Source of the DNA: a virus
Taxonomy: Duplodnaviria > Caudoviricetes
Virus record (IMG/VR): IMGVR_UViG_3300031774_000009
Location: 1-62,937 of that record
Strand: one strand, 5' to 3'
Length of the DNA: 62,937 nt
Each line of letters starts with the position of its first letter. Position 1 is the first letter of the stretch. Positions 1 to 16,220 of this stretch are shown here, in pieces. The translations under genes and the position numbers were made by a program. Below the pieces are notes generated by a model, which saw only the letters and a program-made list of their open reading frames with translations, had not been told where the DNA came from and made no database searches.

Positions 1-90
1 ATAAAAAAACTCGTGCCCGTCCTCAACTACAGCCATCTTGTCTGGAGTCATGTCGCTCCGCTTAAATGTATATGTCTTTACTTCCTGCAT
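1..90 (-). CDS. small early protein, truncated by window edge (MQEVKTYTFKRSDMTPDK...)
   Basis: ATG at 90 lies 9 nt behind TTGACT-N17-TATACT; frame stays open to position 1; not in ORF track. Confidence 0.6.
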   Translation of the reverse strand, partial: MQEVKTYTFKRSDMTPDKMAVVEDGHEFFY

Positions 91-133
91 AACAAAAAAA
101 GTATATCAAATTAAAAAAGAAAAGTCAAGAGGA

Positions 134-412
134 TTACCAGTCGCAGCAGCCACCGTAATCCTCATCTGTCCCCATGCCCGCACTCGCGAGGGCATCCGCG
201 TCCGCTTCCGCGTCCGAGTTAAAACCATCCCATGGCTCAGACTCCTCCTCCTTCTCCGGCCAAACGACATCACCATCAAAGGTGACCTCAGTACCCTCAC
301 GCGAGGCCAAGATGATGGCCTTTTCAAGACCATCGTGAGACCGTGGGAAACCCGCAGCATCGCCGGAGTTGGCGATCTGCACTTTGTACATATTTTCAAA
401 CATATCTCTCAT
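134..412 (-). CDS. acidic early protein ending DADALASAGMGTDEDY
   Basis: 92 aa, about one quarter D/E, MRD start directly behind a sigma70-type promoter. Confidence 0.75.
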   Translation of the reverse strand: MRDMFENMYKVQIANSGDAAGFPRSHDGLEKAIILASREGTEVTFDGDVVWPEKEEESEPWDGFNSDAEADADALASAGMGTDEDYGGCCDW

Positions 413-436
413 AACAAAAAACAGTATATCAGAATC

Positions 437-673
437 TCAGGAAAAAGCAAGCATTAATGTCACTTTTTTACACTTTTTTTCCGCCAGATGCGCAGCCCAT
501 TGCTCGGCGCGTCTTTTGCGATCTTCCATCGCTGCAATCGGAAAATCGCGATCCCGTGCGGTTTGAGGTAAAACAAACACACCGCGTTTGAACTGTTCCC
601 ATGTAGGGCGATCCACTGGGTGAATCGCTTCCCATGCCTTTTTTAACTCTTTTCTTTTCTCTATTTCTCTCAT
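437..673 (-). CDS. small early hypothetical protein (MREIEKRKELKK...)
   Basis: start moved to ATG 673, 10 nt behind TTGCTA-N16-TATAAT with extended TG. Confidence 0.7.
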   Translation of the reverse strand: MREIEKRKELKKAWEAIHPVDRPTWEQFKRGVFVLPQTARDRDFPIAAMEDRKRRAEQWAAHLAEKKCKKVTLMLAFS

Positions 674-753
674 AACAGGAATCATTATAGCACACCCCCC
701 CAAAATAGCAAGCATTATTTTAAAAAAAAATAAAAAAGTTTTTTTATTTTTTA

Positions 754-802
754 CTTGACACGTAACAGTTGCGCGCAACCCCGCTGGCCGTTACGGGTCA
801 AG
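754..802. repeat. 49-bp imperfect palindromic repeat, copy 1
   Basis: CTTGACACGTAACAGTTGCGCGCAACCCCGCTGGCCGTTACGGGTCAAG. Confidence 0.9.
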
Positions 803-814
803 CATTAAAGAGAA

Positions 815-1012
815 TTACTTTTTGCCGAAGCAAAGAGAGCAAGACTCAAAAAACTTACACCAACACAACTCCTCCTCCTCCTCTTTCGCGACCATCTCCG
901 CGTCCTGCGCCTCGATAGCAGCTTGACGCTCCTCTTCACACACAGCCTCAAACTCCGCACGCGCATTTGCGTCCGCCTCGAACACCTCTTCACAACTGAT
1001 ATTATCTCTCAT
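815..1012 (-). CDS. very acidic early protein with C-terminal Cys cluster
   Basis: start moved to ATG 1012 behind TTGACA-N16-TATACT; 65 aa with EEEEE run and CWC...CSLC. Confidence 0.7.
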   Translation of the reverse strand: MRDNISCEEVFEADANARAEFEAVCEEERQAAIEAQDAEMVAKEEEEELCWCKFFESCSLCFGKK

Positions 1013-1093
1013 AACAGGGAACAGTATATCACAACCTTCAGAAATGTCAACCCTTAATATCAATTTTTTTTTATTTTTATTTCTATCTTTTCC

Positions 1094-1142
1094 CTTGACG
1101 CGTAACGGTTCGCGGGCAGGCCGCCGGCCGTTACATGTCAAC
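1094..1142. repeat. 49-bp imperfect palindromic repeat, copy 2
   Basis: CTTGACGCGTAACGGTTCGCGGGCAGGCCGCCGGCCGTTACATGTCAAC. Confidence 0.9.
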
Positions 1143-1162
1143 ACTTTTTTTCATCTTTTCAC

Positions 1163-1193
1163 AAAAAAAACACTCCGCTCTCGCGGAGTGTTT
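1163..1193 (-). terminator. rho-independent terminator
   Basis: AAACACTCCGC-gaga-GCGGAGTGTTT followed by a T-run on the minus strand; near-copy at 4618-4647. Confidence 0.85.
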
Positions 1194-1218
1194 AGTGTTA
1201 TGAGGAGACAAGCAACAG

Positions 1219-1365
1219 TTATGAGGTTGCCAGCTTTTTAAGTTCGGCGAGATTGCCTCTACTTAAAATTTTTATTAAACGTTCAGTCAGTCCACCTTTA
1301 GTGATGATATTTTTAAAATAGCATCTTAAAATTAATTTTTCTTGGCGGTTAAGGTCAGAGATCAT
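1219..1365 (-). CDS. 48-aa hypothetical protein (MISDLNRQEKLILRCYFK...)
   Basis: ATGA overlap with the upstream ORF; below the ORF-track cutoff. Confidence 0.5.
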   Translation of the reverse strand: MISDLNRQEKLILRCYFKNIITKGGLTERLIKILSRGNLAELKKLATS

Positions 1366-1493
1366 CGGAATATCTTTTTTAGCGTACGATTTCTTTTTAA
1401 CCTCGCTTGCATTATAGCGTCATCAATTTTTTTATCAATCAGCTTAAATGCCAAAATAGATTTGCCGCTTCGATTTTTGAATTCAATGTTCAT
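1362..1493 (-). CDS. 43-aa hypothetical protein (MNIEFKNRSGKSIL...)
   Basis: ATGA overlaps on both sides (translational coupling). Confidence 0.5.
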   Translation of the reverse strand: MNIEFKNRSGKSILAFKLIDKKIDDAIMQARLKRNRTLKKIFR

Positions 1494-1966
1494 AGTTTAT
1501 AGAATGCGTGTTGCCCAATTACTTTAACAGGCTTTTGGCCTTTTGCCCAGTATGGAAGTTTTTTCATCCATGTCGCGTGATAGTGGTTAGCATATCCAAC
1601 ATAGTCGCGACTTAATGTTTTCACATTCTTTGCAACGATAATTGCATACTTCGCTTGCGGCACTTTCAACAGATGCTCCAAGTCTTTTAATTTTTTACCG
1701 TTCCAACAACTAAATTGCCATTTTTTAAGGCATACCTCCGAGGGAGTCCGTTTTCTTTCAAATGCTCGTTGAGCAATGACAGCACCCACCGCATACATTC
1801 CCTTTTCCCCTTCGCCTCTGGCTTCCGCCAATATAGTGATTGCGACAATTTTGGTTTCACGACTGAGTTGATGGTTCTTATGTGTGTGGGCATAAACAGA
1901 GTTAACAATTAACAATAATTGAAACGCGAAAGGTATAACACAAAGAGATATAATAAATCTTTTCAT
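1490..1966 (-). CDS. SleB/Hydrolase_2-family cell wall hydrolase with N-terminal signal/anchor
   Basis: TILAEARGEG...AVGAVI..R...QFSCWN...NHYHA...PYWA...IGQHAFYK; start moved to MKRFIISL at 1966. Confidence 0.85.
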   Translation of the reverse strand: MKRFIISLCVIPFAFQLLLIVNSVYAHTHKNHQLSRETKIVAITILAEARGEGEKGMYAVGAVIAQRAFERKRTPSEVCLKKWQFSCWNGKKLKDLEHLLKVPQAKYAIIVAKNVKTLSRDYVGYANHYHATWMKKLPYWAKGQKPVKVIGQHAFYKL

Positions 1967-1967
1967 A

Positions 1968-2204
1968 TTAGAGCCTTGCCTTTCCTTCTTCGATTGGCCA
2001 CATTCCTTCCACCCTATCCATGCGGAACCGCTTGTACTCGCCCGTCTCCATGCACTTGCCGCCGATGCCAGCGAACTTTTCACCGTTAGTGCGATTAGCA
2101 AACGACTCATCCAGTTCGATCTGGTAGCTGTGCATAAGGTTGCCAGTGTTTTCTTCCCCGTCATGTGTGGCGGGCCGATAGTATATGTCGAATATTTCTC
2201 TCAT
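1968..2204 (-). CDS. small WYL-like domain protein
   Basis: C-terminal G.C...GEYKRFRMDRVEGM resembles the WYL R.FR.DRI motif; MRE start behind promoter. Confidence 0.55.
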   Translation of the reverse strand: MREIFDIYYRPATHDGEENTGNLMHSYQIELDESFANRTNGEKFAGIGGKCMETGEYKRFRMDRVEGMWPIEEGKARL

Positions 2205-2245
2205 AACAAAAATTAGTTTAACAGGTTTTTCAATAAAGTCAACAA

Positions 2246-2404
2246 TTATTTTTTATTAGTATTGAGAAGCTTTTGCTTCTCAATGTTGAACTTGGCCACC
2301 TTATGGCGATGGTCTTTGATTGGGTCAAGGAATTTGATCGGGCCATTCAAGACGATTGCCACGTTCAATTCGTGAATTTTCTTCTCTATGTCTATTTCTC
2401 TCAT
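2246..2404 (-). CDS. small early hypothetical protein (MREIDIEKKIHEL...)
   Basis: start moved to ATG 2404 behind TTGACT-N17-TAGACT. Confidence 0.65.
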   Translation of the reverse strand: MREIDIEKKIHELNVAIVLNGPIKFLDPIKDHRHKVAKFNIEKQKLLNTNKK

Positions 2405-2447
2405 AACTTCAAACAGTCTAGCATAGTCTTTTGGTAAAGTCAAGCAC

Positions 2448-2603
2448 TTATTCGCACTCGTGGCATTGGAACCGGTCCAGATCATTCCAGTTTGCAGCCT
2501 CTTCTTGGCTGATCTGAAGTTTCTCGCCGCATCCGCAGCAAGACACTAACACGGGCGACTCTTCGCTAACGAAGACCTCTTCTAGTTCGATTCTATCCCT
2601 CAT
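2448..2603 (-). CDS. acidic zinc-ribbon-like early protein
   Basis: CCGC...CHEC; start at ATG 2603 behind TTGCAA-N16-TATACT. Confidence 0.65.
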   Translation of the reverse strand: MRDRIELEEVFVSEESPVLVSCCGCGEKLQISQEEAANWNDLDRFQCHECE

Positions 2604-2694
2604 AACTGCAAACAGTATAGCACAACCTCCGAAAATTGCAAGCATTATTTTCACTTTTTTTAAAAAACTTTTTTTACTTTTTTTCACTTTTATG

Positions 2695-2743
2695 CTTGAC
2701 ACGTAACGCTTCGCGGGCAGCCCGCCGGCCGTTACATGTCAAC
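2695..2743. repeat. 49-bp imperfect palindromic repeat, copy 3
   Basis: CTTGACACGTAACGCTTCGCGGGCAGCCCGCCGGCCGTTACATGTCAAC. Confidence 0.9.
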
Positions 2744-2770
2744 AATAAAAACGCGTTGCGCGTTTTTATT
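2744..2770. terminator. probable terminator hairpin
   Basis: AATAAAAACGCG-ttg-CGCGTTTTTATT at the end of the lipoprotein gene. Confidence 0.55.
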
Positions 2771-2987
2771 CGGTTTGGTGGTTTAATGTTGTACCAAATC
2801 GGACTAGCATTGTCTTGGGCGTGCCGTCATCTATTGGCTTTAAAAACTTTTGCCATGTAGGCGGATAATATAAAGTAGTCACACCTTTCTTATCAGCAAA
2901 AGAAATTTTCTTATAAACAACTTTCTTTTCAGTAACCACGCAACCAGATAAACAGATTGCACCAACTAAACTAATTATTTTTTTCAT
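2766..2987 (-). CDS. putative lipoprotein
   Basis: MKKIISLVGAICLSGC lipobox-like N-terminus. Confidence 0.6.
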   Translation of the reverse strand: MKKIISLVGAICLSGCVVTEKKVVYKKISFADKKGVTTLYYPPTWQKFLKPIDDGTPKTMLVRFGTTLNHQTE

Positions 2988-2988
2988 A

Positions 2989-3288
2989 TTATTGCATTCG
3001 CTGCGCGTCGACTTTAGTAGCTATTCTTTCCATTATTTTCTTCTGGCCCGACCGTTGGAGCCATAGAGCAAGAGATCTTTCAAACCAGTCTTGTGGCTTG
3101 CGTTCACATTTTACATCCTCCAGCCAACGGTTCAAGTGGTTTGATGTTGTTGGACTATGTTTCTCGTCGGTGCGATAATACTTCAGGCCGACCTTTGCGG
3201 CGACTGGTGTATCGTAGGAGAAGAAAACAGTTGTCCTGTCGCTCAAGTGGAGTTCAGTTTCGTTTAGGCTTATTCGTTTTAGTTTCAT
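2989..3288 (-). CDS. phage hypothetical protein (FSYDTPVAA...SPTTSNHLNRWL)
   Basis: 99-aa ORF in a tightly packed operon; motif of a type common in phage early regions. Confidence 0.7.
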   Translation of the reverse strand: MKLKRISLNETELHLSDRTTVFFSYDTPVAAKVGLKYYRTDEKHSPTTSNHLNRWLEDVKCERKPQDWFERSLALWLQRSGQKKIMERIATKVDAQRMQ

Positions 3289-3290
3289 AA

Positions 3291-3668
3291 TTATTTAATT
3301 AAGGCAATAAAGTAGCGATTAGCAACATCAGCCATTTCCTTATCTTTAGCGTGTTTCTTTCGGGATATCGAGCTAATGTAGTTAAGGATTTCTTCTGTTG
3401 GCTTCTCTTTGTATTTCTCACGAAGGCTCAAGGCCCAATGGAACCAATCTGATTCTACTGTTCTGACTTTACCATTGGCAAAAATTGTTTGAACAAACAT
3501 CTTAAAACCGGGTTCGCTGCGTGTCATGTAGGCGTGGGCGAACTCCTCAATTTTGCCGTTGTCTTCGGGGTTGAGATCGTCAGGCGATTTAGCAGCCATA
3601 GCAACCTTAACGCCTCGCGTCACCAACTGCATACCGTCAATTATTGAGTCTAGGGAAAAAATTGTCAT
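3291..3668 (-). CDS. hypothetical protein
   Basis: 125-aa ORF coupled to its neighbours. Confidence 0.65.
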   Translation of the reverse strand: MTIFSLDSIIDGMQLVTRGVKVAMAAKSPDDLNPEDNGKIEEFAHAYMTRSEPGFKMFVQTIFANGKVRTVESDWFHWALSLREKYKEKPTEEILNYISSISRKKHAKDKEMADVANRYFIALIK

Positions 3669-3868
3669 TTGGTATTACTTGGGGCAAACTGGTTTATTTC
3701 GTAAATGCCGTCCCACTTCTTTTGATGCTTATGTACAGCGAATTCATGTGAGATTAGTTCAAACAAATCTTCGCGTGATTCATGCCCGATGCTTGTTTGC
3801 CCATAGGTGCTGAAGTAGCGAGCAATTTGTTTTCGAATACTTTCTTCAAGTTGTTTCATTTCGTTCAT
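3665..3868 (-). CDS. hypothetical protein
   Basis: 67-aa ORF with ATGA overlaps. Confidence 0.6.
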   Translation of the reverse strand: MNEMKQLEESIRKQIARYFSTYGQTSIGHESREDLFELISHEFAVHKHQKKWDGIYEINQFAPSNTK

Positions 3869-4107
3869 AGTTCGTCACCTCCCCAGTTAGACATAGACAA
3901 TTCACTATTGCCTCCTTCTGGCATTACCTTTTCGATCTTCCATGGCCACGCATTGGAATCAATCACTTGCGCTAGGCTCAATGCATCCATTGAGCCAGAG
4001 TGATCTTTGCCCACCGTGTTGACATATTCTTTTGTATTAACCTCATTAGCATCTAAGTCGTGCCAAGTTAAAACAAACCGCGTTTTCATTACTGAGTCCT
4101 GTATCAT
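3865..4107 (-). CDS. hypothetical protein, paralog of 5970-6212
   Basis: shared TW.D.D.N.V..K...N..G.DHSG...AL..AQ..D.N.WPW..E...WGGD. Confidence 0.75.
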   Translation of the reverse strand: MIQDSVMKTRFVLTWHDLDANEVNTKEYVNTVGKDHSGSMDALSLAQVIDSNAWPWKIEKVMPEGGNSELSMSNWGGDEL

Positions 4108-4120
4108 AACAACAAAGAGA

Positions 4121-4345
4121 TTATCCTATAAATTTTTTTAAAAGTAAAGTACTTTTTTCAAGTTCAGCCAATTTTTTTGGGCTTTTAGTTGGCTTCAGTT
4201 CATTCAAGAAAAGAAGCATGGAAGTTCGAGCAATTGCCTTCTTTAATAGGGGATCGACTTTTGGCGCGACTTTGCGGGTTTTTGGGTAGGTTGTCATGTA
4301 GTCAGCCCAATCAGCGTCAGTCCAATCAGCAAAGGGGCTGCTCAT
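4121..4345 (-). CDS. hypothetical protein
   Basis: 74-aa ORF with ADW repeats at the N-terminus; ATGA overlap with the upstream ORF. Confidence 0.6.
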   Translation of the reverse strand: MSSPFADWTDADWADYMTTYPKTRKVAPKVDPLLKKAIARTSMLLFLNELKPTKSPKKLAELEKSTLLLKKFIG

Positions 4346-4464
4346 TTCGGGTTCCTCCCATAGTAGCCAGCCCGTTGCCGGCGTTGGTGCTTCGGATCAT
4401 TGTTCACAACATAGACGCGCCCATTCAGGGTAATCGTCTCGACTTCTTGTTTCTTATCCCTCAT
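4342..4464 (-). CDS. 40-aa early protein (MRDKKQEVETITLNGRVYVV...)
   Basis: MRD start 10 nt behind TTGCAA-N17-TAGACT; not in ORF track. Confidence 0.65.
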   Translation of the reverse strand: MRDKKQEVETITLNGRVYVVNNDPKHQRRQRAGYYGRNPK

Positions 4465-4546
4465 AACAGAAAACAGTCTACCAGAATCGTTTGAAAATTG
4501 CAAGCACTTTTTTTAAAAAAATAAAAAAACTTTTTTGTCTTTTTTG

Positions 4547-4595
4547 CTTGACACGTAACGCTTGGGCGCCTGCCCGCCGGCCGTTACGCCTCAAG
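4547..4595. repeat. 49-bp imperfect palindromic repeat, copy 4
   Basis: CTTGACACGTAACGCTTGGGCGCCTGCCCGCCGGCCGTTACGCCTCAAG. Confidence 0.9.
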
Positions 4596-4617
4596 CTTTT
4601 TCTTCATTTTTTTACAT

Positions 4618-4647
4618 AAAAAAACACCCCGCTTTCGCGGGGTGTTT
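4618..4647 (-). terminator. rho-independent terminator
   Basis: AAACACCCCGC-gaaa-GCGGGGTGTTT followed by a T-run on the minus strand. Confidence 0.85.
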
Positions 4648-4692
4648 ATGTTATGAGGTATGACAGACAACACGCACACACAAACGAGGTTA

Positions 4693-4977
4693 TTACACCT
4701 CGGAAATTTTTTGTTTAAACTCCGCAAGTGCTTTCCGTATTTTAACACTTGCCGCAGCATCCATGGCGATGCTGCGTTTTGAGCCACGCAACCGATGAAG
4801 AAAGTCTGTTGCTTCGCGGGTGATGTTCTTCTTGACCATCCGCTTTTGGCCCTCCGCTTGGAGTTTATCGCTGCGCTTCATCTTTTTGCGCGTTAATGAT
4901 TTTGTTTTACTCATTTCTTCTTCTTCTTCTTCTTTAAACTCTTGGCACAACTTTTGCCATTCATTGTAATCTAACAT
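4693..4977 (-). CDS. hypothetical charged protein
   Basis: 94-aa ORF, acidic N-terminus followed by a basic helical region. Confidence 0.6.
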   Translation of the reverse strand: MLDYNEWQKLCQEFKEEEEEEMSKTKSLTRKKMKRSDKLQAEGQKRMVKKNITREATDFLHRLRGSKRSIAMDAAASVKIRKALAEFKQKISEV

Positions 4978-4984
4978 TTTAAAT

Positions 4985-5388
4985 AAAATGGTGGTTGGAC
5001 TATTTGTTTACCAACAACTTTTCGGCTTCCAAATCAAATTTTCAGATTTACCTACTTCGTACCCATCCAGACTACCCTCTGCCACTTGGCCGTCGAGCTT
5101 GTCCAGTTGTCGCCTTAACGCCTTGGATGCGTTTATTCAGCCACACCGATCTCACTCCGTCGAGCGAGAAAATTAATTAAGTTGCTGCCGCACCACCAGC
5201 AGTTATAAGTTTCATTAGCATATGATATGAAACAATTAACGGGCGTGAACTTTCAACTGTGTCGTGCGCACGAGACAGATTCACAGGGGTATTTAACTCC
5301 GTCAACTTAAATTCAAAGAGCGTCTGGGATTGACTAGCATTGCATTCCTGCCCTAGTCTTTTACATCGGCCCAGCCCGATGTATATGG
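4985..5388 (-). ncRNA. candidate structured non-coding RNA region
   Basis: ~400 bp with no convincing minus-strand ORF inside a dense operon; several hairpins (4994-5015, 5117-5133, 5150-5169, 5209-5233, 5257-5278, 5362-5383). Confidence 0.45.
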
Positions 5389-5604
5389 TTAGCTTACCAA
5401 CTCCAGATGATTAATCTGGGAGATGTTAAACCGGCGTATGCCGTGACTCTCGCCATCAGCAAATTTATACCCCTTAATGTGGTCAGGGTGTCTCTCGGTA
5501 ATGGCCACGGTGTATTCCTTGGTCATCCCGTCCTTGCGCTCATAGTTCACATGGTAGCGCGGCGCATTATCGATTTGGTTCATTATTTCTTCGTTTGTCA
5601 TCAT
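5389..5604 (-). CDS. small WYL-like domain protein
   Basis: YHVNYERKDG...GIRRFNISQINHLELV; promoter TTGACA-N17-TAGACT at ~5648-5676. Confidence 0.55.
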   Translation of the reverse strand: MMTNEEIMNQIDNAPRYHVNYERKDGMTKEYTVAITERHPDHIKGYKFADGESHGIRRFNISQINHLELVS

Positions 5605-5683
5605 AACTTGATTTTCTGTCTTGTGGTTCTTCCGAACCGCTGCAAGTAGTCTACCTGCTAGGCGGCGTAATGTCAACCCCTTT

Positions 5684-5956
5684 TTAATCTTTTTTTCCAT
5701 ACTTAAAAGCGGCTTGGTCAGCAGCAGTACGCAGATGTCCGCGATCAACGGGCTGGCCTTTGGTATTATGTGTCTGCATAGCAAAGTGTTTGTACCCTCT
5801 GTCGAAGTCTTCTTTAAGGCCATGCATATCTTCTGTGGTTATACTGCCCATACCTTCGATCCGTTCTGTCTCAGTAGCTTTACGCTCACTAAAGTCTTTA
5901 TGGCCGAGATTGCGTTGATGTGCTTCGAATCCGTTATTGTTCATGTTATTACTCAT
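5684..5956 (-). CDS. hypothetical protein
   Basis: 90-aa ORF. Confidence 0.6.
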   Translation of the reverse strand: MSNNMNNNGFEAHQRNLGHKDFSERKATETERIEGMGSITTEDMHGLKEDFDRGYKHFAMQTHNTKGQPVDRGHLRTAADQAAFKYGKKD

Positions 5957-5969
5957 ACTAATTTAAAAT

Positions 5970-6212
5970 TTATCCACAAGTAGGGAAGAGTCTACCATTA
6001 CCCATTTGATCACCACCCCAGCCATGCGCTACCTCTGTACCATCTTCCTCAAGTACCCATGGCCACATATTAGTATCAGCCTGTTGAGCTATTGCCAGAG
6101 CTTCATCCATGCCAGAGTGGTCAACGCCTTCCTTGTTGGTGAAGTCTTTACTGCTAACACGATTGGAGTCTTCATCTTTCCAAGTGATTGTGTATGTCTT
6201 TCTATCTCTCAT
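5970..6212 (-). CDS. hypothetical protein, paralog of 3865-4107
   Basis: start moved to MRD at 6212 behind TTGACA-N17-TAAGCT; DHSG/WPW/WGGD motifs. Confidence 0.75.
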   Translation of the reverse strand: MRDRKTYTITWKDEDSNRVSSKDFTNKEGVDHSGMDEALAIAQQADTNMWPWVLEEDGTEVAHGWGGDQMGNGRLFPTCG

Positions 6213-6225
6213 AACTGGATATAGC

Positions 6226-6408
6226 TTACCTGATTTCTTTTGCTTTGTCAACTTCTTTGTTATCCCACTCGAAGGGGATCTCATCCCCTTTGAGTGATGG
6301 CTCAGGCGCACCGCAAGAGTTGTTGTTGCAGTGAGGGCCAAGGTAGTGGGAGGTGTTAGCATTTAGTCCATGGAATCTGTAAGTTTGTGTCTGTGTGCAA
6401 TATGTCAT
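6226..6408 (-). CDS. small hypothetical protein
   Basis: 60 aa; ATG 10 nt behind TTGACT-N17-AATAAT. Confidence 0.55.
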   Translation of the reverse strand: MTYCTQTQTYRFHGLNANTSHYLGPHCNNNSCGAPEPSLKGDEIPFEWDNKEVDKAKEIR

Positions 6409-6454
6409 AACTAAAAAAATTATTATCTATTTGAATCTTAAAGTCAATTACTTT

Positions 6455-6727
6455 TTAATAATTGTCTTTGTGGAATCTTCCTTTGGGTGTTCTATCTTCA
6501 AAGCATTTAGTGATCTCAACTACTTCAACCATGTCACCAGTCTTTTCATTATTATTCACATCAGAATCGAGGAATTGCTTTATCATCTCTTCTTCAGATG
6601 TTCCTAGTGGGTATGTATTACCCATTGAGGAATTAGTGCGAGCGAGGTAATGACCGCCTTTGTAGTTTGGATTCCTTCTTAATTTGAAGGTTACGTTTAG
6701 GAAGTTTATGTATTCTGTATCTCTCAT
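6455..6727 (-). CDS. early hypothetical protein (MRDTEYINF...)
   Basis: start moved to 6727 behind TTGACT-N17-TTTAAT. Confidence 0.65.
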   Translation of the reverse strand: MRDTEYINFLNVTFKLRRNPNYKGGHYLARTNSSMGNTYPLGTSEEEMIKQFLDSDVNNNEKTGDMVEVVEITKCFEDRTPKGRFHKDNY

Positions 6728-6776
6728 ATCAACTGCGTATATTAAACCATACTTTTTTAACAAAGTCAACACCTTT

Positions 6777-7010
6777 TTACAGGCTGTCGACCATTTCTTC
6801 GACGACGTATTCGTGCCATGCGTCCACTGTGTGCTGTACAGTGTATTTATCCACAAAGCATTCGCGAACTATTTCGCTTTCCTTTTCGGCGTTGATATCG
6901 CCGAAACCCAGTTCCCAGTATTCGCATCGTGCTGCGACCTCGTTGAAGAACACTTTCCAAGAGTTTGTCAGAATGTCTGACTCGTATTTCATCTCTTTCA
7001 TATCTCTCAT
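6777..7010 (-). CDS. acidic early protein (MRDMKEMKYESD...)
   Basis: start moved to 7010 behind TTGTAT-N16-TATCCT. Confidence 0.65.
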   Translation of the reverse strand: MRDMKEMKYESDILTNSWKVFFNEVAARCEYWELGFGDINAEKESEIVRECFVDKYTVQHTVDAWHEYVVEEMVDSL

Positions 7011-7090
7011 CTGAAAAAAGGATAGCAGAACCACAGAAAAATACAAGCTAAATCGACAAAATAATTCATTTTAATTTAGCCCCTATTCTG

Positions 7091-7106
7091 GCAGGTTCCA
7101 TGCCAA
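7091..7106 (-). promoter_or_regulatory. possible sigma54 (-24/-12) promoter facing the early region
   Basis: minus strand TTGGCATGGAACCTGC, GG-N10-GC spacing. Confidence 0.35.
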
Positions 7107-7268
7107 CCCCCCCCATTTTTTGAAATTTTAGAGTATTCTTTTGTTATAATAACGGCCGGGGGTGGTATTTTTCAATATTGCCACCCAAACTGAACAAAAC
7201 AAAAATTTAGTAAATTAAAAAAATCGGCGGCCCTATTTAAATTCAAACAAAAAAATATATAATCAACG

Positions 7269-8024
7269 ATGATCATCTCTAATCCTCAATACGACTGGCG
7301 CGAAAGCAACTGTAAAACTTTCGGTATGGAGGGCATAGACGAATATTTATACGAAAATTATTTAAAAAATATTGAAAAAGGGTTTTATATAGAATGCGGG
7401 GCCGCTAATGGAATAGAACAAAGCAATACCGCCGCTCTTAATTTTCATTATGGATGGAAAGGTCTTTTGATTGAACCCAATCCTTTTCAATACAAAAATA
7501 TGTCAAAACTAAGACACGATTGTTTTGCTTCTAATTGCGCTCTTGTATCCCATGAATACACAGAAGATTACATAGAAGGTTTTTTTGGCGCAGACCCGCG
7601 CTACCTTCAGGGACCAATACCCCTCTCTGAAATCAAACATTTATTAGAAAATAAGGAAGAGCTTGCTTTATACAATAACGCACCTCAAGATGCGATGTGC
7701 GGTCAAATCAAAACAAACCATGATTACGACAAAAAAAGATATTCAGATTCTACGCAAGCCCTTGAGGTGCCTGCGAAAACATTAGATTGGGTTTTGGACT
7801 CCTATGCAATAAAAAAGGCTGACTTTTTCTCGTTAGATGTGGAAGGATATGAAGTGGAAGTATTAAAAGGTTGGTCTCCCTTCAAATACCCGATTCGATA
7901 CGTCTTGATTGAAACACCATCAGAATCAAGCGTTAAAAACGACATTATTAAACAATACATGACACAACATCATTATAAAATTGAAGAAAAAATACAACAC
8001 AACACATTGTATTCTTTATCTTAA
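7269..8024 (+). CDS. FkbM-family methyltransferase
   Basis: GFYIECGAANGIEQSNT...WKGLLIEPNP...DFFSLDVEGYEVEVLKG. Confidence 0.9.
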   Translation: MIISNPQYDWRESNCKTFGMEGIDEYLYENYLKNIEKGFYIECGAANGIEQSNTAALNFHYGWKGLLIEPNPFQYKNMSKLRHDCFASNCALVSHEYTEDYIEGFFGADPRYLQGPIPLSEIKHLLENKEELALYNNAPQDAMCGQIKTNHDYDKKRYSDSTQALEVPAKTLDWVLDSYAIKKADFFSLDVEGYEVEVLKGWSPFKYPIRYVLIETPSESSVKNDIIKQYMTQHHYKIEEKIQHNTLYSLS

Positions 8025-8067
8025 AATTTTCCTTGACAATCCAAGCGACAGCAAACAAACTACTCAC

Positions 8068-8880
8068 ATGACGAAGTTATATTCATTTTGTGCAATTATT
8101 ATTACCACCGTTTCTTTAACGGCCGGACCAACCATAACCCACGGAACATCAACTTATACTTTAGTTAATGATAAGCCATACACATGGCATGAAGCAAAAG
8201 TTAAAGCAGAAAGTTTAGGAGGACATTTAGCAACAATAACCTCTAAAGAAGAAAATGATGTTGTTTTCAATAAATTAAATTTAAATGGTCTGAATCCATG
8301 GCTTGGAGCTACAGATGAAAAATCTGAAGGTCAATGGCGTTGGATTACAGGAGAAACATGGACTTATACCAATTGGGGTGGCCATGGTAATGATAATGCC
8401 AATGGCAATGAACACTACCTTCATTTTCATGCTTATTTCCCTTCTCAATGGGGTGACCACAAATCAGTGATGTTTCACACTGTCGGTGACGGCAAGGGGT
8501 GTTTTATATTAGAGACACCACACAAACAAATTATTAACAATAAACCAAATACGTATGAATTAACAAAATTTATTCCTTCTGGTTTTTCTATGATACAAAT
8601 ACCCTTCTCGTATCAAAATAATTCTATACAGGCTATTTTCGGGGCTGGCCATGATTTTGTGATATATGAATATACTTTCACAAAAGACTTTTTTCACGGC
8701 GAATGGGTAATTAACGCTTACGACTCTGACTTTGAGGAATGGGACTATCCATCACATGTTTTACCTGCCGGCACGGCAGTTTGGATACTAAATAATTCTC
8801 CCTTTGTTAAAATGATAGAATTCAAGGGTCACATCCCTAAAAATTGGAAAAACGTAAAATCCACTGTAAGAATTCCTTAA
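8068..8880 (+). CDS. secreted C-type lectin domain protein
   Basis: signal-like N-terminus; TWHEAK..AESLGGHLATITSKEEN...WLGATD..SEGQWRWITGE.W.YTNW; start moved to ATG 8068 behind TTGACA-N17-CAAACT. Confidence 0.8.
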   Translation: MTKLYSFCAIIITTVSLTAGPTITHGTSTYTLVNDKPYTWHEAKVKAESLGGHLATITSKEENDVVFNKLNLNGLNPWLGATDEKSEGQWRWITGETWTYTNWGGHGNDNANGNEHYLHFHAYFPSQWGDHKSVMFHTVGDGKGCFILETPHKQIINNKPNTYELTKFIPSGFSMIQIPFSYQNNSIQAIFGAGHDFVIYEYTFTKDFFHGEWVINAYDSDFEEWDYPSHVLPAGTAVWILNNSPFVKMIEFKGHIPKNWKNVKSTVRIP

Positions 8881-8889
8881 TTTAAAAAA

Positions 8890-9609
8890 ATGGCTAAAGA
8901 AGTACAAGACAATGTTCGAGAAGAAGAATTGCGTGCTTTATTTGGTTTAACCAAAGATGAATCTACTGGTCGAAGCGGAGTTGACGCTTATTTAGATTTA
9001 AATAATACTAAATATGAGTTTGAGCTAAAATCAACAACCACCGGCAACGTAACAACAGTTCGTGACTTTGGCTTGTCTCATATAGAAAAATGGAAAAACA
9101 AGCATTGGATTATTGGCTATTATTCTAATTTGCAAATTCTTCAATATGCAATATACGCCCCGCCTTCGTTCATGAAGCAATGGATTGATGAAAAGCAAAA
9201 TTATATTGAACTTGATTTTAAGTTTGCCGCGTTAATACCTGAGAGTGTGACTATGAAGCATTTTAATGCTTTATTGCCCAACAAAAGTAGATATACATTA
9301 CAAGACGCAAAATTCATCCACAAAAAGCAGTACAGCAAGGAAAAGTATAAATCAATGATGGATCTTCATAATGGATACTCAAAAGAGCGCATGCTTGAGA
9401 TTATGCAAGACAGAATACGTTATTTAATCCAACGAGGTTCTACTTTGAATAATCCTCACATTCCAGCTAATTATTTCAAAGAGTTTCCTGCTCAATACTT
9501 CATAAAAGATGATTTTCAAAAAAACTTACAAAAGTTAATGAATAATCATTCTTCTCAAATAAAATCTCCTAATTTAAATAGAATGAGTCAGCAGTCTGAA
9601 TTATTTTAG
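8890..9609 (+). CDS. PD-(D/E)xK restriction-endonuclease-like protein
   Basis: SGVDAYLD...FELKST pattern typical of type II REases. Confidence 0.55.
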   Translation: MAKEVQDNVREEELRALFGLTKDESTGRSGVDAYLDLNNTKYEFELKSTTTGNVTTVRDFGLSHIEKWKNKHWIIGYYSNLQILQYAIYAPPSFMKQWIDEKQNYIELDFKFAALIPESVTMKHFNALLPNKSRYTLQDAKFIHKKQYSKEKYKSMMDLHNGYSKERMLEIMQDRIRYLIQRGSTLNNPHIPANYFKEFPAQYFIKDDFQKNLQKLMNNHSSQIKSPNLNRMSQQSELF

Positions 9610-9760
9610 TTTTTTTTTATTTGGAGAGCAAAAATATTTTAAAAAATTAAATTTTATTATAACAAGGTGTTTTTGCGCTCAAAAGGTGCTATGCACCGCT
9701 CTGAGCACAAAGAAATGTTGTTTAAGGCAAATATCGTGTAATCTTTTAAGGGAAGTGATA

Positions 9761-9880
9761 ATGAAAATCAACGGCGATAAAATACTTTATATTATAGGAT
9801 GGATAGCTATTAGTCCCTTTATACTAAAAGATGCAATAGTGATAGGAGTAAAATGGGTATACAAAAAAATAAAAAAATAG
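9761..9880 (+). CDS. small membrane protein
   Basis: hydrophobic 39-aa ORF behind a GTGTAA motif. Confidence 0.4.
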   Translation: MKINGDKILYIIGWIAISPFILKDAIVIGVKWVYKKIKK

Positions 9881-10032
9881 ATGTATGGGGAATTTTTTCT
9901 GGTGTTGTAGCTATTGTTATCGTCATAATATTTCATTACGCTTTTAATGTTGGAGGGATAGAAGAAAGCCCTAAAAAAGAAAGGCATAACCCAGATTTAC
10001 CTCTTCAAAGATACGGATCAGGAGTAAGATGA
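9853..10032 (+). CDS. 59-aa membrane protein (MGIQKNKKIDVWGIFSGVVAIV...)
   Basis: AGGAG before the ATG, one TM segment, ATGA overlap with the next gene; not in ORF track. Confidence 0.5.
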   Translation: MGIQKNKKIDVWGIFSGVVAIVIVIIFHYAFNVGGIEESPKKERHNPDLPLQRYGSGVR

Positions 10033-10340
10033 AAATTTTAATAACTATCTTAATAATTGTCATGAGCACCGGCTGTGCATCATGGGGATGGGAATCAGTT
10101 GACTCCCATCATCATCGTCATTGGGAATATGATCACGTAGATGTACTTACTCATCATTATTACGACTACGGTCATCACCATCGTTATAAAGGGCGACATT
10201 CGCACAAAAAGAGAGCTTCACGGCCTTTACCAACATCACGGCCTCCTGTACCCCCTCGACGGCCTATAAGCCCTCCTACGAGATCTATTAGTAAAGGGAT
10301 TCCTAGCGACAGGGTGCCATCAAAGAGGAACGAAAAGTAA
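10029..10340 (+). CDS. His/Pro-rich putative lipoprotein
   Basis: MKILITILIIVMSTGC lipobox-like, His-rich middle, Pro/Arg-rich tail. Confidence 0.55.
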   Translation: MKILITILIIVMSTGCASWGWESVDSHHHRHWEYDHVDVLTHHYYDYGHHHRYKGRHSHKKRASRPLPTSRPPVPPRRPISPPTRSISKGIPSDRVPSKRNEK

Positions 10341-10369
10341 GTTCGACTAAACATTTTAAAGATAATATT

Positions 10370-10621
10370 ATGGCAGACATAAAAGACAAACTAGCGGAAA
10401 ACGTAGAAGGTAGATATTTTGTAGATTCTGAATGTATAGATTGTGATGCATGTAGAGAATCTGCTCCAAACAATTTTACCAGAGAACCAGACGAAGGTTA
10501 TTCATACGTCTTTAAGCAACCAGTAAACGAAGAAGAAGAAAAAGAATGCAAGGAAGCAATGGATACCTGCCCTGTAGAGGCTATAGGAGTTTGTTGCGGA
10601 ACATCCTGCGGGTGTCACTAA
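10370..10621 (+). CDS. ferredoxin (single-cluster 4Fe-4S/3Fe-4S type)
   Basis: YFVDSECIDCDACRESAP...CKEAMDTCPVEAIG. Confidence 0.9.
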   Translation: MADIKDKLAENVEGRYFVDSECIDCDACRESAPNNFTREPDEGYSYVFKQPVNEEEEKECKEAMDTCPVEAIGVCCGTSCGCH

Positions 10622-10622
10622 C

Positions 10623-10847
10623 ATGAGTTTTCCTTGTAAAGGCTACAAAGAGCTTGCTGAAGATTGCCCGGAGATTCCAGATAATACTTGTCCTCATATA
10701 GATAAAGCTCAAGACTACTTAGAAGAGTTGCGTGATCAAAATGAAGCGCTGCGAGAGGTGGGTAAATACTGGAGAACCACAGCAATGCATTTATTACAAG
10801 AATGTTGTAGCCTTAATAGGTACATTCGGGAACTAGAGGAGAAATAG
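10623..10847 (+). CDS. hypothetical protein
   Basis: P.IPDNTCPHID...LEELRDQNEALR helical ORF. Confidence 0.6.
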   Translation: MSFPCKGYKELAEDCPEIPDNTCPHIDKAQDYLEELRDQNEALREVGKYWRTTAMHLLQECCSLNRYIRELEEK

Positions 10848-10864
10848 TGTAATATACATATATT

Positions 10865-11263
10865 ATGGAAGAGGCAAAAGTCAACGACAATACAAGTTTA
10901 GGTATTAATTTAAAATGGTTAGTCCAAATTATAGTAGTAGCAGCAATGGCGGTGTGGGGTTATTTTGGAATTACTTCAAAAATATCTCAATTAGAGATCG
11001 ATGTATTAAGAATGAAAGACGCGGTAGAAATGAATTCTGATTTTAGAGTAAAATGGCCCCTTGGGCAATTAGGAGCATTACCAGATGACGCTGAACAAAA
11101 TATGCGTTTAAGATTTATAGAAAAAGATATAGAGGTTATGGAGGCTCACGTCGACACCCTCCGAATCAAATCCGTACAACAAGAAGAGCTACACAATCCC
11201 CCTCATCCTTTTATGCCTCAAACACCCCCTTTAAACCATAAAGAAGCGGGCGGAGTAAGATAA
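10865..11263 (+). CDS. membrane-anchored coiled-coil protein
   Basis: one TM segment followed by a heptad-like region; GTGTAA upstream. Confidence 0.6.
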   Translation: MEEAKVNDNTSLGINLKWLVQIIVVAAMAVWGYFGITSKISQLEIDVLRMKDAVEMNSDFRVKWPLGQLGALPDDAEQNMRLRFIEKDIEVMEAHVDTLRIKSVQQEELHNPPHPFMPQTPPLNHKEAGGVR

Positions 11264-11628
11264 TGGAGTTTCATTCGTATTTAAAACAGCTTAGACTAGT
11301 ACGGTTTAAGGACACCAAAAAACTATGCATGATGCTGGGTGTCTCAAAACAGGAATGGCGCAAAATTGAACGCGGAATAAACCCTCCTCCCCGAAGATCG
11401 CTATTAAACAAGTTTTGCGTTTTGACAGCCGCCTTAAGCTATGAACAGGCTCAGCTTTTTGCATTGGCTAAAAAATGGAAACCTCACGCAGACACAAATA
11501 CAGATAATCATATCTTATTAGACCCGAAGTCTAGAGCTATAGATTTCCCCTCTATACAAGAATGGAGAGAAGCCATGATAAAAGAAAATACCCCAGACTA
11601 CGAACACAAGCACTGGGGGAGGCGATGA
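11263..11628 (+). CDS. XRE-like helix-turn-helix protein
   Basis: FHSYLKQLRL...LCMMLGVSKQEWRKIERGINPPP. Confidence 0.65.
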   Translation: MEFHSYLKQLRLVRFKDTKKLCMMLGVSKQEWRKIERGINPPPRRSLLNKFCVLTAALSYEQAQLFALAKKWKPHADTNTDNHILLDPKSRAIDFPSIQEWREAMIKENTPDYEHKHWGRR

Positions 11629-11664
11629 ATTGTTAGATTTGGTTAAACAAAGAGTAAACTCACG

Positions 11665-12681
11665 ATGAAAATAGCATTTATAGATTTTTGGCCTAATTTT
11701 GAATTAGAGAATAATTATTTTTTTTATTTATTGAAGGATTCTTATAATTTGGAGATTAATCAAGTTGATCCAGATTTAATGTTTCTTCATACAGACTCTT
11801 ACCGCTTTTGCCATAGAAAAGAGTTTGTTGACCATCCGGCCACTCGAGTTTTTTGGACCATGGAAGGGGAACCTCCTAATTTTGAAGTTGATACCTATCC
11901 ACCCGACTTAAGTATAATAACCACGGGAGGTAAAGGCTACAATGACCCCAACTCTCAATTAACCAAACAATCAACCGATTTTTCAAGAAAATATTATTAC
12001 GGTCGTTGTGATTTTGCTTTAACTCATGAAGTCATGGACGATAGCCGTCATTATCGTTTTCCATATTGGGTTTATCATATTGATTGGTTCAATAAAGGAG
12101 ATTATGGAGGAGAACCAAATTATTTAGTGCGTGAAAATGAGATAAGCAATAATGTTTATTACAATACAGCTAAAACTAAATTTTGTGCAATTTTTATGAG
12201 TAATCCTACCTGTCAAAGATTAGAAGCATACAATAAGCTTAGTACATATAAACAAGTAGATGGTTATGGAAATAGTTTTAAGAGGGAGGCTGTCAGCCGC
12301 AATAAGTTTCAGGGAGTTAATGATCCGTGGGAAAAAAGAAAATTAGAAGTTTTAAAAGACTATCGTTTTTCAATTTGTTTTGAACATCAAGTAAGAGATG
12401 GTTATCATTCAGAAAAATTATTTCATGCAAAGGTAGCAGGTACAATTCCAATTTATTGGGGAGCCTCTACTGTTTCACAAGATTTTAATCCGGACTGTTT
12501 TATTAATTTAAATGATTTTGATTCAGTTGATGCTATGTTAGAAAGAGTCAAAGAAATCGATCAAAATGAAACTCTTTATCAGCAGTACGCTCAAGCCCCA
12601 TTATTCGTAGACAATAAAGTGCCTGATAAATTTAAGCCCGATGCTGTTTTAAACTTTTTTACAAATACTGTTTTAGCTTAA
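11665..12681 (+). CDS. glycosyltransferase family 10 (alpha-1,3/4-fucosyltransferase-like)
   Basis: KFCAIFMSNP...YRFSICFEH...GYHSEKLFHAKVAGTIPIYWG. Confidence 0.9.
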   Translation: MKIAFIDFWPNFELENNYFFYLLKDSYNLEINQVDPDLMFLHTDSYRFCHRKEFVDHPATRVFWTMEGEPPNFEVDTYPPDLSIITTGGKGYNDPNSQLTKQSTDFSRKYYYGRCDFALTHEVMDDSRHYRFPYWVYHIDWFNKGDYGGEPNYLVRENEISNNVYYNTAKTKFCAIFMSNPTCQRLEAYNKLSTYKQVDGYGNSFKREAVSRNKFQGVNDPWEKRKLEVLKDYRFSICFEHQVRDGYHSEKLFHAKVAGTIPIYWGASTVSQDFNPDCFINLNDFDSVDAMLERVKEIDQNETLYQQYAQAPLFVDNKVPDKFKPDAVLNFFTNTVLA

Positions 12682-13379
12682 GGGGCGTCTCGCCTACTTC
12701 TCTTATATTCATCATATCTTCTTTGTCTTTCATTGGAGTCAATTTTTTGACCCATTTGTTCTTGACCGCTTTGAAGCCTTTCTAGTCTTTCGAGAATATA
12801 TTTTTTTTTATCTTTATCTTCTACTTTTTCTAAATACTCTAACCCTCTTTTAATTATACTGGGGTCAATTTTGGGCCTACGTGACGGCACAGTGACGATT
12901 TGAGGTCGAGGGGTACTCGGGGTAGGGGAAGACTTCTTAATGTCCTTAGAGGAGCTTTTAGAGCCCTTAGACGACGTTTTGACGGTAGGAGCCTTTAAAA
13001 TTACGGTAGGAAGGCCGTGCGTCTTAAATGTAAGGTGTTGCTTGGTTCCTCTATTATCTATGAGGACAGATTTTTTTAAAATTTTAATTATGGTGATATT
13101 GTCTTGTTTTTCTCCTTCAGATAAGGATAAAAATTTATTGGTAGCACTTCCGCTTACTTTTAATGCTAAATAGGCTTTTGGCGAATGGTGACGGGTTATG
13201 CCTGTTAGATAGACGGGATCGGGAGGTAAGATAGATGTTATGGGAGGAAGAATGAATGCAGGAGAATCTGTGGTTAATTCAAAAGCATTTCTCTTGGAAA
13301 TAATTTGATAGGGATTTTCCGCCAATAAAGTACAAGTCCCCAATAAAAATATAAATGTAAATAATCTAAATATCACCAT
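12678..13379 (-). CDS. secreted/periplasmic protein, GspC/PilP-like
   Basis: signal peptide; NPY..I..RNAF...LTGIT...AYL...LSEGEKQDNITIIKI; Pro/Ser-rich tail. Confidence 0.45.
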   Translation of the reverse strand: MVIFRLFTFIFLLGTCTLLAENPYQIISKRNAFELTTDSPAFILPPITSILPPDPVYLTGITRHHSPKAYLALKVSGSATNKFLSLSEGEKQDNITIIKILKKSVLIDNRGTKQHLTFKTHGLPTVILKAPTVKTSSKGSKSSSKDIKKSSPTPSTPRPQIVTVPSRRPKIDPSIIKRGLEYLEKVEDKDKKKYILERLERLQSGQEQMGQKIDSNERQRRYDEYKRSRRDAP

Positions 13380-14181
13380 CGGCTTTTCTATATGAATCTT
13401 TTACTTTTCCGCCTCGCTTCATTTTTAAAAACATATTGACTCTTGCCATAGCCCATCCGCCACGACTCATGCCCGGTCTGTGAGAAGAAGAAAAAGCTCC
13501 TGCCCCTCTTCTGTATACTTTTTTAAGTTGCCCCAAAGTAACTTTTTTAGAATGTTTAGCATTATGTTCTTTGACTTTTTCTTTTAAAGATTTAACTATG
13601 CTTTCAGAGAACGTGATTTTACCTCCCCCACTTCCGGCGCTACCGGGTTTATTTTTACTAGAGCCTTTTTTTCTTTCACTTGGCTTGGCAGGAGTTTGTG
13701 CTGACGACTTAGGGCCGGGCCTAGAAGCAACTGCTTCGCAGCCGCATCCACTACCACACCCACAACCCTCTTCCTCTTCTTCTTCGTCAGGATCGTCAAC
13801 AAAAGCAAGAGAAGGATTGATAGATATGAGTTCATCTAAGTCAAAAAGAGTTTCGCCGTCCCACTCATTTATTAGATGTGAACCTTTAGTATAATCAGTT
13901 ACCGATTTTCCGGCCTCCCACATTTTGCAACTCCAATAACGAGCTTTGGTTTTAGGTCCCGGATTTGCGCAATTATGACGAGCACGAAAGTTTTTGCGAC
14001 GATCAGGATCGTCTCGTTTAATCTCCATATTAGGGTCACCAAAATTAACCTTCACCACATTCCCTTTTTCGTTTTTAACATATACTGAAAACTTTTTAGG
14101 GCCTTTAGGCGTTCGAAAGGGCTTATTCAATGTTTTACTCTCTTTTGCTTGAATAATCTGTTGAGTGAAATCTACTTCCAT
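13366..14181 (-). CDS. two-domain basic phage protein with Glu/Cys-Gly linker
   Basis: LNKPFRTPKGPKKFSVYVK...FGDP...RRKNFRARHNC...ARYWSC and VYRRGAGAFSSSHRPG...WAMARVN domains; start moved to ATG 14181. Confidence 0.7.
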   Translation of the reverse strand: MEVDFTQQIIQAKESKTLNKPFRTPKGPKKFSVYVKNEKGNVVKVNFGDPNMEIKRDDPDRRKNFRARHNCANPGPKTKARYWSCKMWEAGKSVTDYTKGSHLINEWDGETLFDLDELISINPSLAFVDDPDEEEEEEGCGCGSGCGCEAVASRPGPKSSAQTPAKPSERKKGSSKNKPGSAGSGGGKITFSESIVKSLKEKVKEHNAKHSKKVTLGQLKKVYRRGAGAFSSSHRPGMSRGGWAMARVNMFLKMKRGGKVKDSYRKADGDI

Positions 14182-14200
14182 ACTTATTATATACACATGG

Positions 14201-14521: not shown

Positions 14522-14535
14522 ATAAATATTTACAC

Positions 14536-14568: not shown

Positions 14569-14589
14569 ATAAGTGTTTTAACGCTTTTA

Positions 14590-16202: not shown

Positions 16203-16220
16203 AAAAATGGATACTATTAA

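Follow-up and report, generated by a model that had tools for sequence, protein, structure and literature searches.

The closest described counterparts of the elements treated here are the promoter(early) stem-loops (PeSLs) of T4-like phages, in which a stem-loop terminator is followed by an AT-rich stretch and then by a sigma70-like promoter, a Shine-Dalgarno sequence and a start codon (Comeau et al., 2014, PMC4122927). The parts of the two reports used here place PeSLs in hyperplastic regions and describe them as mediating modular shuffling and the formation of mini-circles (PMC4122927; Arbiol et al., 2010, PMC2839356). A related composite recurs in the early region of the IMG/VR record IMGVR_UViG_3300031774_000009, a tailed-virus contig of 62,937 bp that is rated 43% complete. 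The entire record was analysed and is called the window below. Each composite in the window contains a 49-bp palindrome, which is present four times among the early genes. The unit is best regarded as a variant form of PeSL; it is a genuine feature that is conserved in many marine samples. The palindrome itself is plausibly a duplex site for a putative lineage-specific dimeric protein that would act at the borders of the units; based on the sequence comparisons described below, this reading is held with about even confidence.

Like the PeSLs, to the extent that these are covered in the parts of the reports used, the unit is a repeated composite of terminator, AT-rich stretch, sigma70-like early promoter and next start codon. 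It lies among small unknown genes of hyperplastic regions, is found at insertions, deletions and replacements between close relatives, and varies slightly in sequence by phage lineage. The AT-rich stretch and the sigma70-like promoter were recovered in four of four window units, and a terminator and a hyperplastic region with gene differences were found as well. In contrast, a GC-rich palindrome of 49 bp with three boxes is added between the terminator and the AT-rich stretch. The Shine-Dalgarno sequence is absent, and about 10 nt separate the -10 from a conserved start, ATG-AGR-GA. The contig also carries siphovirus-type tail genes and is not that of a T4-like myovirus. A limited literature search by title and opening of the abstract returned nothing relevant on similar palindromes or on leaderless, conserved starts of phage early genes.

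The four palindromes of the window are as follows.

754 to 802, minus strand: palindrome A; its gene-sense reading begins CTTGACCCGTAACGG, it lies 12 nt past the stop of gene 815-1012, and no terminator precedes it
1094 to 1142, minus strand: palindrome B, 49 bp
2695 to 2743, minus strand: palindrome C, 49 bp
4547 to 4595, minus strand: palindrome D, 49 bp

The original prediction had reported four elements of exactly 49 bp at these positions, and all four were recovered as described. The pattern TTGACRCGTAAC-N18-26-GGCCGTTAC matches four times in the 62,937 bp, compared with 0.00 matches expected from 100 shuffles, so the repeats are non-random. All four share one orientation, that of the minus-strand early genes. 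None was flagged as terminator-like on either strand in a terminator scan of the window, and the sense strand past the palindromes continues into an A run, not the T run of an intrinsic terminator. An Rfam search returned no family for the elements, with only chance-level overlaps at 2713-2770 and 4512-4688 (E 0.27-0.95).

In the direction of early transcription, a stop codon or terminator comes first; the palindrome is next, then A/T tracts over about 40 bp, and lastly a sigma70-like promoter with the ATG-AGR-GA start. The promoter consensus is TTGACw/TTGCww, a gap of 16-17 nt and TGnTAnACT, with the ATG following after about 10 nt; in the window, most promoters have TG ahead of the -10. The components that accompany the palindromes are:

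1168 to 1193, minus strand: intrinsic terminator before palindrome B, an 11-pair stem and T run, flagged by the scan
4622 to 4647, minus strand: intrinsic terminator before palindrome D, flagged by the scan
2745 to 2771, minus strand: terminator-like hairpin abutting palindrome C, A5CGCG-CAA-CGCGT5, seen by eye and unflagged by the scan
712 to 753, minus strand: A/T spacer of unit A, between palindrome A and the -35, itself an inverted repeat of A run and T run
1051 to 1093, minus strand: A/T spacer of unit B
2642 to 2694, minus strand: A/T spacer of unit C, with one additional A7GT-type unit
4504 to 4546, minus strand: A/T spacer of unit D
671 to 711, minus strand: promoter A, TTGCTA-16-TATAAT with TG before the -10, then 10 nt to the ATG at 673-671 of gene 437-673 (MRE...)
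1010 to 1050, minus strand: promoter B, TTGACA-16-TATACT, then 10 nt to the ATG at 1012-1010 of gene 815-1012 (MRD...)
2601 to 2641, minus strand: promoter C, TTGCAA-16-TATACT, then 10 nt to the ATG at 2603-2601 of gene 2448-2603 (MRD...)
4462 to 4503, minus strand: promoter D, TTGCAA-17-TAGACT, then 10 nt to the ATG at 4464-4462 of gene 4342-4464 (MRD...)

Three of the palindromes had been said to have a terminator hairpin just upstream. This holds for B and D; at C, the scan was silent and the hairpin was recognized by eye only. The A/T tracts that were predicted to separate each element from its promoter are present, together with sigma70-like -35 and -10 sequences. As predicted, the start codons are found at distances of 81, 82, 92 and 83 bp, as coordinate differences; they read ATGAGAGAA, ATGAGAGAT, ATGAGGGAT and ATGAGGGAT. 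The 92-bp distance of unit C is explained by the extra A7GT-type unit in its spacer. The claim of a near-fixed distance is true within the window but does not extend to the 76 promoter-bearing copies of the larger pooled sample described below, where the first TTGAC and the -35 can be as close as 68 bp or as far apart as 124 bp. These distances fall into clusters at 72-73, 80-85, 89-93 (44 of 76 copies) and 99-101 bp, with steps of about 9 bp that match the gain or loss of A7GT-type spacer units. Helical phasing was considered and rejected, no period standing out with most copies at 89-93 bp. Moreover, the spacer and promoter are homologous among the window copies (65-80% identity over 83-92 nt), so descent of the whole unit accounts for the near-fixed distance as well as phasing would, and the two are inseparable. 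The early genes are near-leaderless, with the ATG 8-10 nt past the -10 within a conserved GTT-ATG-AGR-GA and without a Shine-Dalgarno sequence. Examples on the minus strand begin at 412, 673, 1012, 2204, 2404, 2603, 4464 and 7010. Because of this conserved start, many early proteins begin with MRD or MRE.

Related phages carry the same palindrome with different arms. A scan of the IMG/VR collection for the exact arms of the window found them in no other viral contig, because the relatives have CTAAC/GTTAG. With the varying base left free, 29 stretches were recovered, of which nine were true copies from three relatives and 20 were unrelated. Four related contigs contain 21 further copies (G003 nine, G004 eight, G014 one and G019 three), with arms of the form TTGAC-NN-CTAAC...GTTAG-NN-GTCAA. 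Compared with the GTAAC...GTTAC of the window, a G-to-C change in one arm is mirrored in the other. Conservation in relatives, which the original prediction had proposed to look for, was found in the form of 25 copies in the five contigs (the window and these four), all in early regions. An alignment of 24 copies (A1) resolves three symmetric boxes at fixed spacing, TTGAC/GTCAA, STAACG/CGTTAS and GCGG/CCGC, separated by spacers that are variable in sequence and constant in length. Eight columns are invariant in the upstream half and six in the downstream half.

The same properties are seen in a sample pooled from relatives and metagenomes, in which the metagenome scan gave 113 stretches and the distinct copies number 111 overall. 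CTAAC/GTTAG arms are found in 89 of these and GTAAC/GTTAC arms in 20, the window included; two are changed on one side only and none is crossed. The arm classes are never mixed within any of the 14 sources with multiple copies, and a single length is shared by 77 of the 78 distinct pooled elements. Among the 25 copies of the five contigs, a terminator-like hairpin with a T run stands directly before 17 (by eye), one follows a tRNA-Cys gene, and 18 are followed by a promoter of the MRD type; six are without one. By automatic criteria, a terminator-like hairpin lies within 60 nt of 54 of 109 pooled copies, and a promoter within 130 nt of 76 of 106. A copy in G003 that lies behind a plus-strand gene is reoriented along with that gene. 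An origin of the element in the host was rejected, as only one chance-like match was obtained when 185,579 species genomes of bacteria and archaea were scanned. Some of the promoterless copies face AT-rich stretches of repeated TTATTTA(C/G)-like words, which may be iterons or an origin; such stretches are found in L105 at about 7046-7150 and below 2880, in L106 after 8265 and after 12314, and in G020 after about 110,753 and 105,194. In the G014 copy (L109 1300-1348), the asymmetric centre and the adjacent promoter are on opposite sides, as if inverted, and one inverted centre is also present in G020.

More distant relatives have a different element in the same context, which fits lineage-specific recognition. 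Contigs whose early hydrolase is 78-88% identical have the same promoter and ATG-AGR-GA but lack the window-type palindrome, and the ATG-AGR-GA start is thus retained without it. Two of these, G020 (170 kb, 100% complete) and G021 (144 kb, 90% complete), possess two 27-bp palindromes, GTAAGTCnTTGA-NNN-TCAAnGACTTAC, at a distance of 52-53 bp, with a GC-rich centre that contains a C run between them. This doublet occupies the place of the window palindrome and is restricted to the early regions. G020 has seven such composites, all within 105-116 kb; the doublet regions lie at about 105,194-116,474 in G020 (L211) and 131,927-143,151 in G021. In ten G020 palindromes read by eye, arm positions 6-8 never match each other. 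C-run centres are also present in some window-type copies from metagenomes, and G010 has yet another type of arm. To judge from these genomes, position and GC core are conserved across the clade and the arms are lineage-specific.

The elements were also proposed to delimit gene cassettes, and in a looser sense they do. Gene content changes at the whole unit of terminator, palindrome and promoter, rather than exactly at the palindrome. The window differs from G003, G004 and G019 in gene order, and the alignment blocks end at cassettes. Specifically, gene 815-1012 is followed by palindrome A and gene 437-673 in the window and by a palindrome and an ortholog of 4342-4464 in G003 and G019. Gene 2448-2603 is missing from G003, with the junction at the promoter and ATG, and a tRNA-Cys is inserted at the upstream edge of palindrome C in the same genome. 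Among 67 copies with sufficient flanking sequence, the upstream flanks fall into 26 clusters and the downstream flanks into 27, and 42 pairings of the two occur. Of 18 upstream clusters that recur, 11 are joined to at least two downstream genes, and the converse is true of eight of 13. By identity profiles and change points, the junctions form two zones. In 95 pairs with a clear change, the change points fall in the terminator region before the palindrome (29), the palindrome (7), the A/T spacer (12), the promoter, ATG or just after (36) and the upstream gene (11). No single exchange point is in use. Exchange within the palindrome may also occur, as a crossover inside a shared block would appear at the edge of the block. 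Contigs assembled from four other marine runs leave the window sequence at 716-753, 1135-1151, 2594-2599, 2667-2695 and 2742, although these joins are short-sided and weak. The cassette provides the shared homology for the exchange, loss and gain of small early genes among related phages. A tRNA-Cys (GCA) adjoins the boundary element in G003, G004 and G020 (L105 9768-9841, L106 7580-7653 and L211 7172-7245) and behaves like an additional cassette; none is present anywhere in the window.

Whether the palindrome is read as a folded strand or as a duplex bears on all of the explanations. The original prediction held that the variable centre still pairs with itself, and this was not borne out. With a symmetric hairpin imposed on 24 aligned copies, 73.2% of cells pair, compared with 73.8% after shuffling, and the observed value is equalled or exceeded in 404 of 500 shuffles. 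Only one pair, 9-41, is altered on both sides in more than three copies (CG in 20, GC in four), and columns 15-18 are mostly unpaired with 32-35. Exchanging halves between copies leads to the same result. In the sense direction, native copies average -24.13 kcal/mol and swapped ones -24.55, and 366 of 500 permutations are no less stable; in the antisense direction, the values are -22.97 and -24.08 kcal/mol, with 491 of 500. For 27 distinct intact copies of the CTAAC class, the energies are -25.7 (native) and -29.0 kcal/mol (swapped), and all 300 swaps are at least as stable. There is no selection for pairing beyond the conserved boxes. The half-swap result may still be compatible with a hairpin that holds a fixed internal loop. 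The native palindromes are less self-complementary than the half-chimeras, and the internal loop may be held open on purpose. The prediction that G-T wobbles favour folding of the plus strand also failed. RNA fold energies for the plus and minus strands of the four window copies are -19.8/-23.6, -27.9/-24.2, -23.4/-28.5 and -22.4/-26.3 kcal/mol, so that the minus, gene-sense strand is the more stable in three of four, as it is in 51 of 78 distinct pooled elements.

A symmetric change in the arms without compensation elsewhere is what a two-fold recognition site in duplex DNA predicts. The general attributes of a dimeric operator, namely two-fold boxes, fixed spacing, symmetric variation and no need for pairing within a strand, are present. 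An operator for a dimeric regulator, as suggested in the original prediction, is accordingly still the best reading in view of the constant 49 bp and the symmetric boxes and base swap, but no binding protein was found. In the mechanism proposed here, a dimeric or tetrameric lineage-specific protein would read the palindrome as double-stranded DNA through the three symmetric boxes, in the layout TTGAC-N2-STAACG-N4-GCGG-N5-CCGC-N4-CGTTAS-N2-GTCAA. Its role might be to separate or insulate neighbouring early transcription units, or to switch the early promoter next to it. Exchange would proceed by general homologous recombination between cassettes and would involve no site-specific recombinase acting on a folded single strand.

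Several observations weigh against a duplex site for a dimeric protein. The window copies have real hairpin potential (z-scores of -2.6 to -5.5), which leaves room for a role as RNA or as a cruciform. The symmetry is imperfect, and copies in G003 and G019 show a downstream arm with either a spacer shortened by 1 nt or TGCAA in place of GTCAA. A promoter within 130 nt is missing from 30 of 106 pooled copies. The pattern used to select metagenome copies required the upstream half, which makes the pooled sample unfit for comparing the conservation of the two halves. The concerted change of the arms could stem from gene conversion among copies and not from co-evolution with a protein. Lastly, none of the 23 small early proteins has a DNA-binding Pfam domain. 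An HTH_31-like protein at 11263-11628 (25.0 bits, under the cut-off of 27) was considered as the regulator and rejected: its WRK-E-GINPPP stretch (WRKIERGINPPP in the window) is invariant across genomes of differing arm types, so the protein does not track the arms.

Two alternatives dispense with such a protein. At the RNA level, read-through transcripts would form a hairpin whose folding energy is about -24 kcal/mol and whose 4x4 internal loop is fixed. Such a hairpin could serve as a 3' stabilizer, a processing site or a back-up block, and would uncouple the upstream message from the near-leaderless next gene. The early genes of T7 have RNase III processing sites between them. An RNA role is consistent with the gene-sense z-scores of the window copies (-3.2 to -5.5), with the greater stability of the sense strand in most distinct elements, and with the position of the element, which is always past a gene end and co-oriented with it, also behind the plus-strand gene of G003. 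Pair 8-42, which is U-A in 18 of 27 copies and U-G in nine, pairs on the sense strand only, and the internal loop of columns 15-18 and 32-35 stays unpaired. However, a canonical terminator ahead of 17 of 25 copies means that most transcripts should stop short of the hairpin. The sense hairpin is not followed by a U run and, as noted, the window copies were not flagged as terminators; covariation is limited to the lineage-wide pair 9-41, and no Rfam family was matched. An RNA element is possible, though rather unlikely. Without any trans-acting factor, the palindrome could instead be a structural element of the DNA (a cruciform or GC clamp flanked by AT-rich tracts) or a gene-converted patch of homology that promotes recombination between cassettes. 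The flanks are extremely AT-rich, both strands can fold, the junctions of shuffled flanks cluster at the edge of terminator and palindrome and at the promoter-ATG, and each genome has one arm class, as homogenization predicts. Nevertheless, in pairs that share both flanks the palindrome is at least as conserved as the promoter (identity of 0.93-0.95 vs. 0.91). The constant length and invariant boxes also argue against this explanation, and a symmetric change fixed in every copy requires selection for symmetry. Moreover, a GC-rich centre should hinder cruciform extrusion. A purely structural role seems distinctly unlikely.

The remaining alternatives liken the palindrome to known mobile or promoter hairpins. 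A single-strand site related to integron attC or to repetitive extragenic palindromes (REPs) with their REP-associated tyrosine transposases (RAYTs) would mobilize cassettes through a dedicated recombinase. The attC-like variant had been offered in the original prediction and is not supported. Like attC sites, the elements are imperfect palindromes located at the 3' ends of genes, with TAAC...GTTA arm words and variable neighbours, and a one-base bulge would form in the G003 and G019 variants. The attC consensus has an inverse core of RYYYAAC and a core of GTTRRRY, and the sites are about 57-141 bp long. Both core words are matched by 42 of the 111 pooled copies, all of them among 90 of the CTAAC class; none of the 21 GTAAC-class copies, including the four of the window, matches either. 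The strand-specific fold of attC is likewise missing: both strands fold, the internal loops are symmetric, and there are no conserved extrahelical bases. At 49 bp, the element is also shorter, the cassettes bear their own promoters and the junctions are not fixed. The statement that the window contains no recombinase gene was upheld and was extended beyond it: no tyrosine, serine or Y1-HUH domain (PF00589, PF00239 and PF01797) was found in five records (G000, G003, G004, G020 and G021). Controls for these searches responded in 14, 12 and six of 14 genomes, respectively. The searched records with the window's type of element are incomplete genomes, and the relatives that are 100% and 90% complete carry the other type. 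Resemblance to REPs and their paired form, the REPIN, lies in the GC-rich extragenic palindromes just past gene ends and in the doublet of G020 and G021, which recalls the REPIN's pair of palindromes around a spacer. In contrast to REPs, the copies number four to nine per phage record and not hundreds per chromosome, their orientation to transcription is fixed, the species genomes lack the element apart from the one chance-like match, and the five records lack a Y1 transposase. A site of the attC or REP kind is very improbable. The same degree of doubt applies to a promoter for a phage RNA polymerase, either an N4-type hairpin or a T7-type duplex with a lineage-specific specificity base. Hairpin promoters of the N4 type have a stem of 5-7 bp and a loop of 3 nt, and depend on a gene for a virion RNA polymerase. 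As in N4, small GC hairpins that could be extruded from supercoiled DNA stand ahead of early genes; the upstream half of about 22 bp shows high conservation, and all copies have one lineage-specific base change in common. At the centre of copy C, alone among the four, there is a 5-bp stem with a 3-nt loop. In most copies, however, the central loop is variable and 5 nt long. The palindrome is far larger than an N4 promoter and would place an inward-facing promoter on both strands, and a sigma70-type promoter is already present before every downstream gene. No virion-sized polymerase gene was found, and the largest open reading frame of the window encodes a tape measure protein. A search of the five records for T7-like RNA polymerase (PF00940) had no match, but its control was silent as well.

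The contig derives from an uncultured clade of marine phages. Its siphovirus-type tail genes encode the tape measure protein of 2273 amino acids and lambda-type tail-tip proteins (J, L and M-like), and it also possesses genes for a large terminase, PhoH, glycosyltransferases and a ferredoxin. Compared with named phages, the terminase reaches an identity of only about 27%; relatives are encoded in 593 viral contigs, the best 80 of which are 72-95% identical. The early region, 1-7250, contains some two dozen small genes that are all encoded on the minus strand, and only one of 23 small early proteins, a cell-wall hydrolase at 1490-1966, has a Pfam match above the cut-off. At least 81% of the sampled words of 1-7400 are present in 15 marine DNA runs, five of which (from four studies) were ruled out as the source of the contig; RNA-labelled runs contain 5-10% of them. 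The early proteins 3865-4107 and 5970-6212 resemble paralogues by eye (...W.D.D.N.V..K......G.DHSG...AL..AQ..D.N.WPW...), and G003 carries a protein of the 5970-6212 type where the window has 3865-4107. A gap without genes in the early region, at about 4981-5388, contains a match to the manA RNA motif (RF01745) at 4984-5169 on the minus strand, which covers the full length of the model with 49.1 bits (gathering threshold 55.2; E 1.7e-10); the stretch 4981-5694 aligns to G003. Beyond the early region, 7269-22636 has auxiliary-looking genes, including those for an FkbM methyltransferase, a C-type lectin domain, a 4Fe-4S ferredoxin (10370-10621), a family-10 fucosyltransferase, an MscS-like domain and PhoH, as well as a weak match to sigma70 region 2 at 21917-22636.

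These comparisons extend gene shuffling of the PeSL style beyond the T4-like myoviruses. They also reveal features that PeSLs lack, in that a strictly sized palindrome with lineage-specific symmetric arms stands at each unit border and near-leaderless early genes all open with the same three codons. It is conceivable, though improbable, that the palindromes are recognized by a dedicated phage system, which would mark cassettes of early genes as exchangeable between co-infecting phages. If this were true, a virulent marine phage would possess an integron-like cassette economy with a protein outside the known recombinase families. If a protein reads the palindrome, these phages would provide a simple model for the insulation of densely packed strong promoters, for which the G/C swap between lineages is a natural test of specificity.

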